Of a DNA stretch of 25,257 nt, positions 3,616 through 20,840 are shown in pieces. Positions within the stretch are counted from its first letter, which is position 1. Each line of letters starts with the position of its first letter. The DNA is from a virus (Duplodnaviria; Caudoviricetes). The notes beneath the pieces were generated by a model, which was not told the DNA's origin, did not search any database, and saw only the letters and a program-made list of their open reading frames with translations. The DNA is taken from IMG/VR virus record IMGVR_UViG_3300031953_000094, positions 1 through 25,257 of that record, one strand, 5' to 3'. The position numbers and the translations under genes were made by a program.

Positions 3616-4443
3616 ATGCGAGTCTTCCAACAGCTCGTCGCGCTTTGGCGTCGACTGACCCGCACCTACCGCGGTAAAAACAAGCTCGAGTGGATCACTG
3701 TCCACGAGACCGCCAACCCAAACGACGGTGCAGACGCCCAGGCGCACGCGAACCTACAGAGTAAGGGCAACGCCCGCCGCGCGTCATGGCATGAACAGGT
3801 TGACGACGGTGAAGCCATCCAGTCGTACCCAGACACGAACCGGTGCTGGCACGCAGGCGACGGCCGGGGCAACGGAAACCTGAACTCGTATGCCTTCGAG
3901 ATCTGCGTGAACCGTGACGGCGACTACATCAAAGCCGTCCACAACACTGCCGATCGTGTCCGCGCCAAGATGCGCGAGCGGAACATCCCAATCTCTCGCG
4001 TCGTCCAGCACAACCACTGGTCCGGCAAGAACTGCCCAACATTCCTGAGATCAGGATCTCAGGGCGTCGACTGGAACAACTTCCTCGCACTCGTCGCAGG
4101 CTCCCCCGTGTCCCTGCCTAAACCAGCACCAACCCCCACTACCCCAAGTTCTGGAAGGAAGGTCACCGTGAACGTCACGATGCGCCGTATCGACCTGTCT
4201 CACGCGGACGCCACCAGTGTCACCGGCGACGATGTCGGACAACTGCAAGGCCTCCTCATGGCCCACGGCTACGGACCCAAGGGTCTCGTCAACACGAAAA
4301 CGGGGCGTCCCGACAAGTTGGGCGGCACCCTCACCAAGGCGTGGTTCCGGCAGTTCCAGAAGGACCACCCCCACACCGGCACCAAGGGCAAGCCGGACGA
4401 CGTGTGCGGCCCCGCGTCGTGGACCGAACTGATCCAGAACTAG
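3616..4443 (+). CDS. Endolysin, N-acetylmuramoyl-L-alanine amidase (Amidase_2) with C-terminal peptidoglycan-binding domain
   Basis: Amidase motifs ITVHETAN, SWHEQVD, WHAGDG, FEIC and QHNHWSGKNCP. Pro/Thr linker. PG-binding motifs GDDVGQLQGLL...FRQFQ...DDVCGPASW. RBS GAAAGGA. Confidence 0.92.
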   Translation: MRVFQQLVALWRRLTRTYRGKNKLEWITVHETANPNDGADAQAHANLQSKGNARRASWHEQVDDGEAIQSYPDTNRCWHAGDGRGNGNLNSYAFEICVNRDGDYIKAVHNTADRVRAKMRERNIPISRVVQHNHWSGKNCPTFLRSGSQGVDWNNFLALVAGSPVSLPKPAPTPTTPSSGRKVTVNVTMRRIDLSHADATSVTGDDVGQLQGLLMAHGYGPKGLVNTKTGRPDKLGGTLTKAWFRQFQKDHPHTGTKGKPDDVCGPASWTELIQN

Positions 4444-4449
4444 GGCGCC

Positions 4450-4764
4450 ATGAGCGAGCCGACCTACACCGAAAACGTGACCGAGCTCAAGGGGGACATG
4501 CGCGAAGGCTTTGCCCAAATAAAGGGCACGATCAACGAACTCGCGGCAGAAGTTAGGTCATCCAACCAGGCCCGCAGTATCGAGGCCATCGAGTTGCGCC
4601 GCGATGTTGACCGAAATACCGCCGACATTCACGCCATTCAACTGAGGTTCGCCGCGATGGATGCCGCACCAGGGCTCACGTGGAAAACGGTCATCGGCGA
4701 CGTGAAGGTGTGGATCACGGTCGCCGCCATCGCATTCGGTATCTGGCAGGGACTCGGAAGCTAA
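4450..4764 (+). CDS. Lysis-cassette membrane protein (coiled coil plus C-terminal TM helix)
   Basis: C-terminal hydrophobic segment VWITVAAIAFGIW; lies between endolysin and holin. Confidence 0.7.
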   Translation: MSEPTYTENVTELKGDMREGFAQIKGTINELAAEVRSSNQARSIEAIELRRDVDRNTADIHAIQLRFAAMDAAPGLTWKTVIGDVKVWITVAAIAFGIWQGLGS

Positions 4765-4873
4765 TTCGGGCCGTGCCTGGTGCGCCGCGGCATGTCCATC
4801 CGAGCCCTCACGGGAAGCGCACCCACACAAACGACCGCACGCAATGGACGTGTGGCAGAACAGGAGACACACC

Positions 4874-5083
4874 ATGAATATCACCTGGCTCAAAGCCGCA
4901 GGAATGCGCGCACTCAAGACGTTTGCCCAGACCGCGGTCGCCCTCATCGGCACCGGGGCTGTCGGCCTGCTGGACGTGAGTTGGGTGGGCGTCGGCTCGG
5001 GCGCACTGCTCGCTGCCGTCCTGTCGATGCTCACCTCGATAGGCGGCATCCCCGAAGTGGAAGCGGCACCACCCCGCCCGTAA
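4874..5083 (+). CDS. Holin (phage r1t holin family)
   Basis: WLKAAGMRALKTFAQTAVALIG signature and two TM segments. RBS AGGAG before ATG 4874. Confidence 0.88.
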   Translation: MNITWLKAAGMRALKTFAQTAVALIGTGAVGLLDVSWVGVGSGALLAAVLSMLTSIGGIPEVEAAPPRP

Positions 5084-5133
5084 CCCCCTAGACGCGCGAC
5101 CCTCCACGCGCGCCACCTCCACTCGCGACGAAC

Positions 5134-5178
5134 GCCCCCCGCATCGGCCTCATATGGCTGGTGTGGGGGGCTACTTGT
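5134..5178 (+). terminator. Intrinsic terminator ending the late/lysis operon
   Basis: 16-bp stem GCCCCCCGCATCGGCC / GGCTGGTGTGGGGGGC with G-U pairs favouring the + strand, a 6-nt loop and a weak T tail. Confidence 0.7.
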
Positions 5179-5218
5179 CGTTGCTAGGGTGCGGGGGCGC
5201 TACCGTGGGCCCAACTAG

Positions 5219-5308
5219 CGTTTCCCCGCACTCGCGGGGATGATCCCAGTTTCGCTAGCACCGCGACGATCACGGCGTCGTACTCCCCGCATCTGCGGGG
5301 CTTTCGGG
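5219..5308 (+). CRISPR. Type I-E-like CRISPR mini-array: repeat, one spacer, degenerate repeat
   Basis: R1 5219-5247 CGTTTCCCCGCACTCGCGGGGATGATCCC. Spacer 5248-5279 (32 nt) AGTTTCGCTAGCACCGCGACGATCACGGCGTC. R2 5280-5308 GTACTCCCCGCATCTGCGGGGCTTTCGGG. The 61-nt period and CCCCGC-N4-GCGGGG hairpin are canonical for type I-E. Confidence 0.85.
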
Positions 5309-5851
5309 TCGCCAGGCGGCGATGGTGGAGCGCAGCCAGTACGGGGTGCGCTTATCAATGTGGCCGTCTGGCTCGGGGGCCTGGCCACGCGACACGTAGG
5401 AGCGGAAAGTCGTCGGCTGAACACCTGCGACACGTGCAGCCTGTGACGCGGTCAGCCGCTCACCGGCGAAAGTACCCAGCGTCGCAGCGCGGGCGATCAT
5501 CGCGGCTGCCATGACCTCGGGCGTATTTTCTGGCCCTAGTCCCGTGTACTCGCGGGGCTCGCGGTCATAGGCGAGGGTCCATGCCAGCGACCCGGCGCGC
5601 AACCTGTGGCCCGTCCTGTAGGACACACGGTAGGGCTCCGAGCCGGGGACGATGCGCCCAGGATTACCGCGATCCTCTCGCCCGGTCGTGATGACGAGAT
5701 CCGCAGTGTCGTCGCCGGTGGGCGTGTAGTCCCACAGGATGATCCAGGCGTCACGGTTGGCGTGGCTCGTGCCGTCCGCCAACTCGGCGAGTAGCGTCGC
5801 AGGGAAAGCGGTGCCCGGTGCGGTCCGGCGGATAGGTCCAGTGATTGTCAT
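5270..5851 (-). CDS. Protein with unknown N-terminal domain and C-terminal MerR/AlpA-like helix-turn-helix (Aca-like regulator candidate)
   Basis: C-terminal HTH LTASQAARVAGVQPTTFRSYVSRGQAPEPDGHIDKRTPYWLRSTIAAW. RBS AGGAGAG before ATG 5851. Confidence 0.8.
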   Translation of the reverse strand: MTITGPIRRTAPGTAFPATLLAELADGTSHANRDAWIILWDYTPTGDDTADLVITTGREDRGNPGRIVPGSEPYRVSYRTGHRLRAGSLAWTLAYDREPREYTGLGPENTPEVMAAAMIARAATLGTFAGERLTASQAARVAGVQPTTFRSYVSRGQAPEPDGHIDKRTPYWLRSTIAAWRPESPADAGSTTP

Positions 5852-5862
5852 GATGCTCTCTC

Positions 5863-6171
5863 CTAGAGGTAGGTGCCGACGTCGGCACTGCTGCTGTAGT
5901 GGCCGCATGAGTAGCAACGACCGTGGCAATCGTGGTCGTGGATGGTGCAGGGTCGCACGACGGTGGGGGTGGTGTCGCGACGGTCGAGGATATCGATAGC
6001 GGCACGCATGACCGCGTGGGACTGGGAGGCGATAGCCAGCGCCTCGGGTGAGTGGTAGCGACCCATGTCCGTGCCGAGGTAGTCGTGATTGTGTTTGATG
6101 AGTGCGCGAAGCTGCTCGCTGGTGGCTGCCTGCATCTTCTGTGCGAATTCCGTGGTGATCGTGGCGGTCAC
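5863..6171 (-). CDS. Small hypothetical protein with C-terminal Cys/His cluster (anti-defence candidate)
   Basis: GGAGG RBS 8 nt before GTG 6171. First gene behind a sigma70-type promoter. Contains CTIHDHDCHGRCYSCGH. Confidence 0.7.
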   Translation of the reverse strand: MTATITTEFAQKMQAATSEQLRALIKHNHDYLGTDMGRYHSPEALAIASQSHAVMRAAIDILDRRDTTPTVVRPCTIHDHDCHGRCYSCGHYSSSADVGTYL

Positions 6172-6201
6172 GGTGACCACCTCCTCTCTGTCTATGTCTC
6201 T

Positions 6202-6229
6202 ATCTTACATCGCTAGCGCTGTAATGCAA
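6202..6229 (-). promoter_or_regulatory. SigA-type promoter overlapped by a palindromic operator
   Basis: Minus strand TTGCAT-N16-TAAGAT. A 20-bp palindrome TTACATCGCTAGCGCTGTAA (6205-6224, one mismatched pair) spans the spacer. Confidence 0.7.
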
Positions 6230-6300
6230 GTCGAGATAGCCCCAACCAGGTCACAGTTTGGTAACGGGGCCGGTCGCACCACCGGCACGCGCGACACTAA

Positions 6301-6439: not shown

Positions 6440-6865
6440 ATGACAAGCCAGCGGACGTGTTACTCATGCAAAGAGGTAAGGCCGCTCTCGATGTTCTACA
6501 TAGAGGCAGAGAAGCGGCGCGCCGCTACGTTGGGGCGCACGAGCATCCAACACATGTGCAGACTTTGCAGCAGAGAAGTTGCGGTTAAGCGCATGGCGCC
6601 ACGACGGGCAATCATTGACGAAGCGAGGGCCGTGGGCTGCGCAGATTGCGGCGTGGTGAACCTGGCGCACCCAGAGATATTCGACTTCGACCACTTGCCC
6701 GGACACGTCAAACTGGGAAGCGTCACGGCATTTCTGACCAAGGGTTCGATTGATGACCTGCGCGCCGAAATCGCCAAGTGCGAGGTGGTGTGCTCTAACT
6801 GCCACAGAATCCGCACCAAGTCACGCGAGGCCGCGACGTTCGGTGTTAGCAGGGTGGTGATCTAG
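6440..6865 (+). CDS. HNH endonuclease with N-terminal zinc finger
   Basis: CYSC...CRLC, GCADCG, FDFDH and KCEVVCSNCHRIRT motifs. Confidence 0.85.
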   Translation: MTSQRTCYSCKEVRPLSMFYIEAEKRRAATLGRTSIQHMCRLCSREVAVKRMAPRRAIIDEARAVGCADCGVVNLAHPEIFDFDHLPGHVKLGSVTAFLTKGSIDDLRAEIAKCEVVCSNCHRIRTKSREAATFGVSRVVI

Positions 6866-7653
6866 TGGCCGACCTTCTCACAGATGAGTACCTAGCGTGG
6901 TGCCGAAATCAGCGCATCACGCCGAACACAGTCACCAGCCGACGCCGCGTACTCAAGTCGCTCGGCAACGCCGGGGTTGCCACCCGCGAAGAGGTTGAAG
7001 CTTGGTGGAACGAGCGCGCCCACCTCACGGCTGGCACCAGATCCAATGACCTGGCGAACCTGCGCACGTTCTTCAAGTGGTGCAGGCGATGGGAACACCG
7101 CGACGACGACCCCACCCTGCGCCTCGACTCCCCCAAGGTCTCACGCGGACTCCCACGACCACTGAGCAAGCCCGACCTACTGCGACTACTCGACGTGCTT
7201 GGACCCGACCTGCGCCGCTCCGTATGCCTGGGCGCCTATGCCGGGCTGCGTGTATCCGAAGCGGCGGCACTGCGCTGGGACGACATCGACCTAGAGATCA
7301 ACACCATGCGCATCAACGACTCCAAGGGCGGCAAGTCCCGACTCGTCAAGGTGTCACCGCTGTTGATCGACGAACTACTACCACGGGCCGACGGGAACGT
7401 GGTCACCGCTGGCGAACGGCCATACAGTGCCGCGAACCTACAGCGCAAGATCAACCGGGCCATCAAGGCGGCAGGCGTGACTGCCACCTTCCACCAACTG
7501 CGCCACCGTTACGGCACCGTTGCCTACCAAGCCACGGGCGACCTGCTCGCGGTCGGTCGGCAGATGGGGCACTCGTCACCAGTCACCACGGCCATCTATG
7601 CACAAGCGTCTGATGACATCACGGCCAAGATCGCAGCGGCGGTGTTGCGCTAG
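6865..7653 (+). CDS. Tyrosine recombinase (XerC/D-like, no arm-binding domain); second recombinase
   Basis: Full catalytic set: AGLRVSE (R), SKGGK (K), HQLRH, MGHSS, TAIY (Y). 262 aa; TAGTG coupling to the HNH gene. Confidence 0.92.
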   Translation: MADLLTDEYLAWCRNQRITPNTVTSRRRVLKSLGNAGVATREEVEAWWNERAHLTAGTRSNDLANLRTFFKWCRRWEHRDDDPTLRLDSPKVSRGLPRPLSKPDLLRLLDVLGPDLRRSVCLGAYAGLRVSEAAALRWDDIDLEINTMRINDSKGGKSRLVKVSPLLIDELLPRADGNVVTAGERPYSAANLQRKINRAIKAAGVTATFHQLRHRYGTVAYQATGDLLAVGRQMGHSSPVTTAIYAQASDDITAKIAAAVLR

Positions 7654-8510
7654 GCGGCTGCCTGGACAACCGCACGTAGCGCGTCCACCGGTGTCTCGAC
7701 ATAGCGCATTGTCGTCTCAGGCTTCGAGTGCCCCAGCACCTTGCCGAGCGCCAGCACGTCGGGACTTGCGGCATAGGAGCGCGTCGCAAAGGCGTGGCGC
7801 AACTGGTGACCAGTCCAGTCGCCAGGCAGGGCGCGGGCCATGAGCTTGGAGACCCATTGCGCCGACACGTGACCGTCCAGCGAACCAGGGAACACGTAGC
7901 CGCGAGCGCCGGTGATTGCGTCCTGTAGTTCCGAGTTAAGGATTGGAACCAGGCGCATCTTGCCGCCCTTGCCGTCGACGTAGAGTATGTCGCCGATGAG
8001 ATCGGCTGTGCGCACGGCCGCTATCTCGCCGCAACGCAGGCCGGCGTATCGGGCGAGCATGAGCATCAGCCGCACTGGTCGAGATGTACCGAATACCGCT
8101 TCCTGGTAGACGCGTTCGGGAGTAGGGCGCGGCACGCCGGGCGGCACTGTGATGGGCATGAGGTCTACGGCCGGGGAGCGCTCCATCTCGTCGACAGAAA
8201 CGCACCAACGGTAGAACCCCACGGCGACCGTGCGCGCGGACTTGCGTGACTCGGGCCCCCAGTTGGCATTGGCGAGCCACGACTCGAGGTCGCGTCGGGC
8301 GACGGCCAGGGGGTCGGGTTGGGTGCGTGCCAGGAGTTGGAGGTAGTGACCATGCAGGCGGACAGTCTTGGGCCTACGGCCAGCACCGCGCATAGCGGTC
8401 AAATACCCATCCATTAATCGGATCCACATCGTTGTAGCCCCCCAGCCGTCAGCCTCACGGCTTTCATTGCCTATCGGGTGACTACCAGGGAACTTTAGGA
8501 TGTCGCCCAT
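7650..8510 (-). CDS. int: Phage integrase (tyrosine, arm-less type) with C-terminal ssrA-like degron
   Basis: AGLRCGE, GKGGK, HQLRH, LGHSK and TMRY motifs. Ends in QAAA. Co-oriented with the repressor that contains attP. Confidence 0.93.
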   Translation of the reverse strand: MGDILKFPGSHPIGNESREADGWGATTMWIRLMDGYLTAMRGAGRRPKTVRLHGHYLQLLARTQPDPLAVARRDLESWLANANWGPESRKSARTVAVGFYRWCVSVDEMERSPAVDLMPITVPPGVPRPTPERVYQEAVFGTSRPVRLMLMLARYAGLRCGEIAAVRTADLIGDILYVDGKGGKMRLVPILNSELQDAITGARGYVFPGSLDGHVSAQWVSKLMARALPGDWTGHQLRHAFATRSYAASPDVLALGKVLGHSKPETTMRYVETPVDALRAVVQAAA

Positions 8511-8512
8511 AA

Positions 8513-8806
8513 TTAGGCATCTAAAGTGTTGAGCACCACACGCCGCGTGCCCAGCGGGGCTTCAATGTGCGCGAGCGTCATGTCGGTAAGTTCGAGCGTT
8601 CTGGCCCGGAGTGCTGACGCGCGTGCCCGGCCGATGGTGATCGCCGCGACGGCGCCGAAACGCTCGGCCGTGTCGAGGATCTGTCTCGCACTGTAGTCCT
8701 CGATCGCGTTAACCGCGTAGTGCGTCGGCGCTCCGAGTGCGAGCTCGATCGCGTCGAGGCAGAGTCGCTTGAGCAGGGGGGCGGGGAGTTGATCGGCGAG
8801 GCTCAT
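8513..8806 (-). CDS. Hypothetical protein between repressor and integrase
   Basis: 97 aa. ATGA overlap with the repressor stop; its own stop is 2 nt from the int start. Confidence 0.7.
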   Translation of the reverse strand: MSLADQLPAPLLKRLCLDAIELALGAPTHYAVNAIEDYSARQILDTAERFGAVAAITIGRARASALRARTLELTDMTLAHIEAPLGTRRVVLNTLDA

Positions 8807-9195
8807 GCCGCATCCTTCGTTTGGTGGGTGGCGAGCGTGCGGATGCGTGCGACCGCGGTGACTCGCTCGCGCTTGTCCGCGAGGCTTGAGATGCCTCCAG
8901 ACCTATAACCGGCAGGTTGTTGGTTCGAGTCCAACAGAGGGAGCCCCTTGCCCGACGTCGCCAGTGCGGGCGGCATTGGCCCCGGCTCCCCTTGAAGCCA
9001 CCACACGGGCACGCCCGTGGTCATCGCCCACGCCATTAGCGTGCGGCGATCCGGCTCCGTGTGCCCGCGCTCGTAACTTGAGATCGTCTGGCGCGATAGG
9101 TCGAGCGCGTCCGCAAATCCACCTGCGTTTCGGTCGTACCCTGCTGCCTCGCGCGCGATGCGCAAACGTTGGGGAACTGTAAGTTCGGGAATCAT
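8803..9195 (-). CDS. Immunity repressor (XRE HTH) containing attP, with C-terminal degron
   Basis: XRE HTH RLRIAREAAG...FADALDLSRQTISSYERG. LPLLDSNQQPAG is the reverse translation of a tRNA 3' half. Ends in DAA. RBS spacing favours ATG 9195 (TTG 9204 is an alternative). Confidence 0.93.
   Translation of the reverse strand: MIPELTVPQRLRIAREAAGYDRNAGGFADALDLSRQTISSYERGHTEPDRRTLMAWAMTTGVPVWWLQGEPGPMPPALATSGKGLPLLDSNQQPAGYRSGGISSLADKRERVTAVARIRTLATHQTKDAA
8906..8944 (+). other. attP common core, equivalent to the 3' half of a host tRNA (most likely tRNA-Asn GTT)
   Basis: TAACCGGCAGGTTGTTGGTTCGAGTCCAACAGAGGGAGC: 3' side of the anticodon arm, T-arm GTTGG-TTCGAGT-CCAAC, acceptor strand ending GGA plus G discriminator. 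Confidence 0.88.
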
Positions 9196-9228
9196 CTTCA
9201 CCAACCTCTTTCTTCTTGTCGTATGTCC

Positions 9229-20514: not shown

Positions 20515-20840
20515 GCGAGTACACGCCGCAGGCCTGGCGCATGAGGGGCTTCTACCCCGACCAGTACGCCATGTCGAGCGCCGCACTAGGCATCGGCATC
20601 GATTACCAGGACGACGACTACGACCGGTATGAGTCGGAGTTCCTCGCCGACCTAACCGCCCACGAAGACCGCATCCGTGCCGAGGCCAAGGTGGAGGCGT
20701 TGCGGGAGGCGGCTGACGATGGAGTGCGCGACTTCAAGGGGAGCACGGCCGGTGCCCAGTGGGCCGCTGGTCGCAACCTCGTCTCAGCGGACTTCCTGTA
20801 TGCCCGAGCAGACCGGATCGAACAGGAGGCAGGACTGTGA
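20511..20840 (+). CDS. Hypothetical protein
   Basis: GTGA overlaps; EALREAAD...LYARADRIE. Confidence 0.6.
   Translation: MSEYTPQAWRMRGFYPDQYAMSSAALGIGIDYQDDDYDRYESEFLADLTAHEDRIRAEAKVEALREAADDGVRDFKGSTAGAQWAAGRNLVSADFLYARADRIEQEAGL

Follow-up and report, generated by a model that had tools for sequence, protein, structure and literature searches.

Faure 2019 and Medvedeva 2019 (PMC6858448) are said to have described virus-borne CRISPR mini-arrays acting in inter-virus competition.

According to later sources, most viral mini-array spacers target related viruses, chiefly in temperate ones (PMC11656645; PMC7099407; 10.1101/2023.03.03.530964), and the repeats of antiviral mini-arrays have the same sequence as the host's (PMC11656645; PMC7099407). 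Shmakov et al. report 835 two-repeat viral mini-arrays and, for regulatory phage arrays, a conservation of the repeats next to the spacer (10.1101/2023.03.03.530964). For type I-E, Cas-repressing RNAs (Cracrs) have been validated and are also predicted in Actinomycetota, and the guides tested carry spacers of 21–24 nt (Liu et al. 10.1101/2024.10.29.618823). Racrs are solitary repeats (Camara-Wilpert 2023, PMC10651486), and competition for Cas proteins has been shown for related RNAs (10.1101/2024.10.29.618823; PMC10651486). Phage mini-arrays, Cas-repressing phage RNAs (type I-E included) and Racrs are all already published.

The locus compared here lies in a temperate actinophage. Besides the array, the window, that is the whole stretch of DNA analysed (25,257 nucleotides), contains tail and replication genes together with the genes of an amidase, a holin, an HTH protein, an HNH protein, two integrases and a repressor (Table 1). 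Positions 5219–5308 form a 90-base CRISPR unit in which two type I-E repeats (R1 and R2) enclose a single 32-nt spacer at a period of 61 nt, which places it among the virus-borne mini-arrays, in which CRISPR repeats of a viral genome enclose one or two spacers. Cas6e cuts at the base of the repeat hairpin and leaves an RNA of 8 + 32 + 21 nt. The sequence supports a type I-E unit, cas-less as far as the ORFs scanned show, that is shaped to give one such 61-nt crRNA, as the first-pass annotation had proposed: the ends that would form the mature RNA match actinobacterial I-E repeats at up to 27/28 positions, and the anatomy of the unit recurs in other phages.

Table 1 Features of the window and the related mini-array of P. 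freudenreichii phages.
Feature	Coordinates	Strand	Remark
Lysis cassette (amidase, small ORF, r1t-type holin)	3616..5083	+	
Accessory module, 1168 bp (hairpin, mini-array, HTH gene, orphan ORF)	5131..6298	.	missing from related phage
Strong hairpin after holin	5134..5171	.	-37.1 kcal/mol, z -6.7; weak U-tract on +
TACCGT, possible -10	5201..5206	+	seen in sequence; where window diverges from array-less phage L007
R1 (repeat 1)	5219..5247	+	5' end drifted, hairpin intact, canonical 8-nt handle
Predicted mature 61-nt crRNA (8-nt handle, 32-nt guide, 21-nt hairpin)	5240..5300	+	inferred from Cas6e geometry
Spacer, single, 32-nt, codon-like	5248..5279	+	target searches negative
HTH gene, 193 aa	5270..5851	-	beta-rich N-terminal domain + MerR/excisionase-like winged HTH
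R2 (repeat 2)	5280..5308	+	first 21 nt host-like; tail past predicted cut site lost
Orphan ORF, small, upstream of HTH gene	5863..6180	-	homology search found only itself
Two convergent tyrosine integrases	6865..8510	.	
Repressor	8803-9204		after integrases; marks temperate phage
Twin mini-array	L318:4000-4089 (NC_041890.1, about 20681-20770)	-	overlapped by annotated hypothetical gp26

Hairpins of the form CCCCGC-N4-GCGGGG occur in R1 and R2 only, across the 25,257-base window. A pair of them 55–70 nt apart arose in 0 of 300 dinucleotide shuffles (single hairpins at 0.017 per shuffle), and each repeat, folded separately, gives the expected hairpin. The reading of two hairpin repeats 61 nt apart around a 32-nt spacer is thereby confirmed, coordinates included. 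R1 and R2 mismatch at 0 of the 12 stem positions and at 14 of the 17 others (Fisher p=1e-5). Fixed stems combined with drift elsewhere imply selection for processing. The 14 differences over 29 positions also mean that both repeats cannot equal one host repeat, and the identity to host repeats that marks the antiviral class is absent from R1 and R2.

The spacer is codon-like in the phage's own codon use, its best-frame score being beaten by 1.25% of 2000 shuffles (p=0.0125), as expected from a captured viral gene. The mini-array is identical in an IMG/VR locus (L001) and shows no variants in the four brine runs compared, two of which are flagged as possible sources. The data sets found to contain the sequence are brine metagenomes, none of them from RNA. 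No separate piece with the spacer was found in contigs from 8 brine or sediment runs, and the number of Rfam matches was 0.

The array belongs to an accessory module, since a related phage skips 5131–6298 (the joint 5130–6299 is seen in 3 of 4 other runs) and L007, an IMG/VR record of the related phage, keeps the same layout after the holin with the array absent. No Cas family was detected in the ORFs scanned (44/179); the earlier statement that there are no cas genes holds for these, but the window is a partial genome that lacks head genes, and the twin record is rated 23% complete. The array does follow a strong hairpin, which is likely a two-way terminator and had been described as the lysis terminator, although its U-tract is weak and the terminator scan gave no call. 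Likewise, the -10-like hexamer TACCGT is present where it had been read, but a promoter at this place is unproven, given that the promoter scan did not call it and no convincing -35 was seen. Positions 5175–5200 represent terminator tail rather than a CRISPR leader, since they are shared by the array-less L007; a search for sister arrays through this stretch recovered L007 alone, with the array absent. Most of the 42 host leaders compared have AGT or ACT at their end, in many cases preceded by CAGGTC. As the sequence upstream of the array differs from these, the array probably cannot acquire new spacers.

Elsewhere in the module and next to it, several minor features were observed. On the minus strand, 6202–6229 carries a promoter-like pair by eye (TTGCAT, 16 nt, TAAGAT), on which the scan made no call. 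It is overlapped by a 20-bp near-perfect palindrome (6205–6224), a possible operator for the HTH protein; an 8-nt overlap of the spacer with this palindrome is attributed to chance, as the seed positions mismatch. The integrases are short, lack arm-binding domains and adjoin the HNH gene, and the genome G557 has a related stretch over both.

The final 12 codons of the HTH gene overlap R2 together with 10 nt at the 3' end of the spacer, a position of R2 within a gene tail that the first-pass annotation overlooked. Full-length homologues are conserved to about residue 181 only, so that these 12 codons are non-conserved and coding constraint does not explain the hairpin stems. One homologue (P0098) ends in WRPTE where the HTH protein continues from WRPES and, with R2 inside the ORF, the 8 nt past the R2 cut site may belong to the coding sequence of this gene instead of reflecting drift. 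Transcription of the HTH gene would run antisense to the pre-crRNA, across the whole unit. The protein model (mean pLDDT 83) resembles the excisionase RdfS in its C-terminal part, with no Foldseek match reaching E 0.001. A beta-rich domain, predicted with confidence, spans its N-terminal 130 residues; 6 full-length relatives and no fold match were found for it, and the identical phage was the only relative found with DNA context. A role of the protein as an anti-CRISPR is unsupported by the Atlas, by PADLOC families and by Foldseek against solved Acr folds.

The repeats are compatible with a host system at the level of actinobacterial I-E repeats. The first 21 nt of R2 joined to the R1 handle reach 27/28, the same 21 nt alone reach 20/21 against Bifidobacterium consensus repeats, and R1 matches its closest host consensus repeats at 22–26/28. 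The comparison with actinobacterial I-E arrays that had been suggested as a route to the host thus gave close repeats and stopped short of a host assignment. A scan of GTDB contigs for the repeat type returned 105 loci, mostly in Streptomyces, Bifidobacterium, Nocardia, Microbacterium and Brevibacterium, and a 61-nt period with a 32-nt spacer is modal in bacterial arrays with the same repeat. Solitary I-E repeats followed by a near-identical stretch were observed in several Nocardia species (L014, L017, L040, L080), a possible conserved regulatory unit. Among 301 genomes from the order to which Microbacterium halotolerans belongs, 35 contain relatives of the integrases, and the named homologues are actinobacterial. 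The stretch most closely related to the integrase pair (identity 67% at the DNA level over 1.09 kb) lies in G557, which also carries a four-repeat I-E-type array at 23/29 to R1; Cas6e was found in 3 of the 5 genomes tested from its group, but not in G557 itself. None of the 2208 + 426 host spacers matches the window beyond 21 nt.

Comparable units occur in other phages. Our search of IMG/VR gave 31 loci with the repeat core, 11 of them (our own phage included) with 2–3 repeats at a 61–62-nt period. The remainder, by our reading, comprises 8 loci at a 49–50-nt period (20–21-nt spacers), 2 intermediate, 3 long arrays and 7 that are single, cut or irregular. Many of the 31 repeat, in layout only, the drifted first 5' end, the decayed last tail and the terminator thereafter. 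Repeat 1 alone led by BLAST to phages of Propionibacterium freudenreichii, a species with sequenced I-E systems according to PMC5644110. An unannotated I-E mini-array occurs in Anatole, B3, E1, B22 and Doucette; its single 32-nt spacer is the same in all five phages, which belong to two genera, while phages E6, G4 and PFR1 are without it. This twin shares with our array the slot between lysis genes and integrase, the 32-nt spacer, an R2 that decays past the hairpin and, in 4 of the 5 phages, an R1 that starts GTTTCCCC. It differs in facing the lysis genes instead of following them and in a promoter-like pair that is clearer by eye.

The two spacers are identical at 15/32 positions, with 9/10 at positions 4–13, values that are equalled by 38 and 2 of 1393 host spacers, respectively; this likeness is suggestive at most, the statistic being post hoc with some 30 viral spacers in view. 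The motif common to both spacers was absent from 1.63 Mb of I-E loci (0 occurrences, against 4 in the control), and a class-level search with the Propionibacterium handle gave 0/151. No paper on a CRISPR mini-array in Propionibacterium phages was found in our literature search; Table S10 of Shmakov et al. may list the P. freudenreichii element.

The search for a spacer target that had been recommended was run and was negative throughout. INPHARED phages, plasmids, IMG/VR (three patterns) and GTDB contigs (exact 25-base pattern) all failed to yield a protospacer. Among 154 metagenomic loci scored, the best besides the element itself reached 27/32, in a 56%-GC contig, and the matches in 401 Actinomycetales genomes at 3 mismatches were at the control level. 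The co-occurring related phage gave 21/32 at best. Self-targeting, or a recoded gene of the phage itself, was rejected at 21/32 without a seed match, within the partial genome covered by the window. The viruses of the brine habitat are thinly sampled in the collections searched for a PAM-flanked protospacer. For the twin spacer, too, no viral target was found, and the 32-nt viral spacers of L142 and L130 gave no phage match.

Host regulatory targets gave a similar picture. The spacer seed was met in 7 of 401 genomes at 3 mismatches, five times in long arrays and twice without a repeat hairpin, hence in no host mini-array, and AAN followed by the seed was found in none of 81 genomes near G557. 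Across 92 kb of intergenic DNA from I-E loci, seed matches reached 7 nt at best, which is the null mode; this test has low power, since short-spacer viral arrays also gave at most 6–10 nt there. The stretch of at least 9 PAM-proximal nt that Cracrs have in common with a host CreR/CreA or cas promoter had no match in the loci searched.

One further lead concerns integrases. At L472:4907–4941 (G216:C6), a seed-perfect 13-nt match of the spacer, preceded by GAG and with 22/32 overall, lies over the start codon of a phage-type integrase. The 401 genomes contain two matches at ≤2 mismatches, of which this is one; a rough estimate predicts about as many by chance. At 25 homologous integrase starts (4 of 30 loci dropped for having no start, G216 excluded), the mean spacer match beats 99% of 1816 null spacers, in a set that was picked through the G216 match itself. 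For the 12 upstream nt, the match stays at the null level (p=0.24), and this upstream half is unconserved in the 25 homologues; the spacer carries ACC at the position of the family's start codon, and its reading frame resembles the N-termini of the G216 integrase family. A full-length I-E guide that would silence the integrase start of rival integrative elements by partial pairing, and so block the integration of competitors, is a highly improbable reading of these matches.

Our preferred explanation, tentative at a probability of roughly 0.45, is a virus-borne I-E mini-array that supplies a guide for host Cascade against a rival phage or mobile element. Transcription would start at TACCGT or read through the weak lysis terminator, host Cas6e would cut the transcript into one 61-nt guide, this guide would enter host Cascade/Cas3, and the loaded complex would act against a rival phage or another mobile element absent from the collections searched. 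The parts of this account that were observed are the anatomy of the unit, its match to the I-E repeats of actinobacteria, its place in an accessory module and the presence of I-E systems in genomes with related integrases. With the described competition mini-arrays (Iranzo 2020 PMC7099407; review PMC11656645), it shares one full-length spacer, two repeats, no host-type leader and a temperate virus, and no Cas family in the ORFs scanned. The full spacer length, the coding-like content and the published trends favour an antiviral guide: 32 nt is the canonical length, compared with 21–24 nt in the tested I-E Cas-repressing guides, and spacers of 20–21 nt form a separate class in 8 of the 31 IMG/VR loci. 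Against it, no protospacer was found and the repeats are strongly diverged from each other, unlike the host-identical ones of published antiviral arrays; the fixed spacer of the twin, in five phages without a viral target, would also better suit a fixed host target. A Cas-repressing RNA and a decoy stay under consideration because the repeats diverge, the twin spacer is fixed and no target was found.

A Cas-repressing RNA (Cracr/crlRNA), whose guide would part-pair with a host cas promoter or that of a CRISPR-guarded toxin, turn Cascade into a repressor and compete with host crRNAs, is a rather unlikely account. It would fit repeats kept only beside the spacer and in the stems, the degenerate last repeat, the prophage location and the I-E type, as in regulatory phage mini-arrays (Shmakov 2023, 10.1101/2023.03.03.530964; Liu et al., CracrIE1, 10.1101/2024.10.29.618823), as well as the validated and predicted I-E Cracrs of the latter source and the invariant twin spacer; a small ORF with an HTH gene nearby also loosely resembles the acr-aca layout. 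The spacer has 32 nt instead of a shortened length, however, and neither a CreR twin nor a cas-promoter match was found in the seed searches above, the low-powered promoter test included. The HTH protein has no PADLOC family or solved Acr fold match. A target-less decoy, in which the processed RNA would fill Cascade with a useless guide and lower host immunity by Racr-like titration, is improbable: it would account for stem selection together with an absent target, would bind host Cas6 as a phage repeat mimic with no Cas family in the ORFs scanned, and has a precedent in the Cas-protein competition of related RNAs, but Racrs are solitary repeats (PMC10651486), whereas here two repeats stand in exact crRNA register. 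A decoy needs neither that 32-nt register nor a second intact hairpin, and the twin spacer fixed in five phages suggests that its sequence matters. Somewhat less improbable, yet still unlikely, is a relic, either part of a host array that was captured or a once-useful guide, in both cases idle by now and overwritten in part by the tail of the HTH gene. The scan called no clear promoter, the convergent HTH transcript would be antisense over the entire unit, the R2 tail is possibly HTH codons, and host terminal repeats also decay past the hairpin (mean 0.62 tail mismatches compared with 0.08 in internal repeats). Neutral decay, however, would strike the stems too (0/12 against 14/17), and the non-conserved protein tail cannot account for them by coding constraint. 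Drift of the R1 type at the 5' end is rare in host arrays, with at least 2 changes there in 0.5% of 1402 internal repeats, and the anatomy recurs in unrelated phages. The three roles named at the outset (a guide against a competing phage, a repressor of a host promoter such as that of the cas operon, a Racr-type decoy) stay proposals, no target having been found; the core common to the readings, an RNA that host Cas6e processes and Cascade takes up, is very probable.

Taken alone, the locus adds a further phage mini-array, found in a little-sampled actinophage of brine. Its practical value lies in the near twin to which it pointed: five cultured P. freudenreichii phages carry this twin, and I-E systems have been sequenced in their host species. 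The twin makes it directly testable whether I-E mini-arrays with a full-length spacer and degenerate repeats cleave rivals, silence cas genes or serve as decoys.

Further observations were made on the IMG/VR loci. The eight I-E mini-arrays with 20–21-nt spacers at a 49–50-nt period (L114, L117, L120, L125, L126, L133, L134 and L141) are Cracr-like, and several of them are preceded by a -10-like hexamer and followed by a terminator. A GTTTCA core is common to L117, L126 and L141, and the spacers of L125 and L134 begin with TAG(T/A)A. L128 and L130, on phage contigs of 44–47% GC, are two-repeat mini-arrays with 32-nt spacers that have common flanks and differing spacers.
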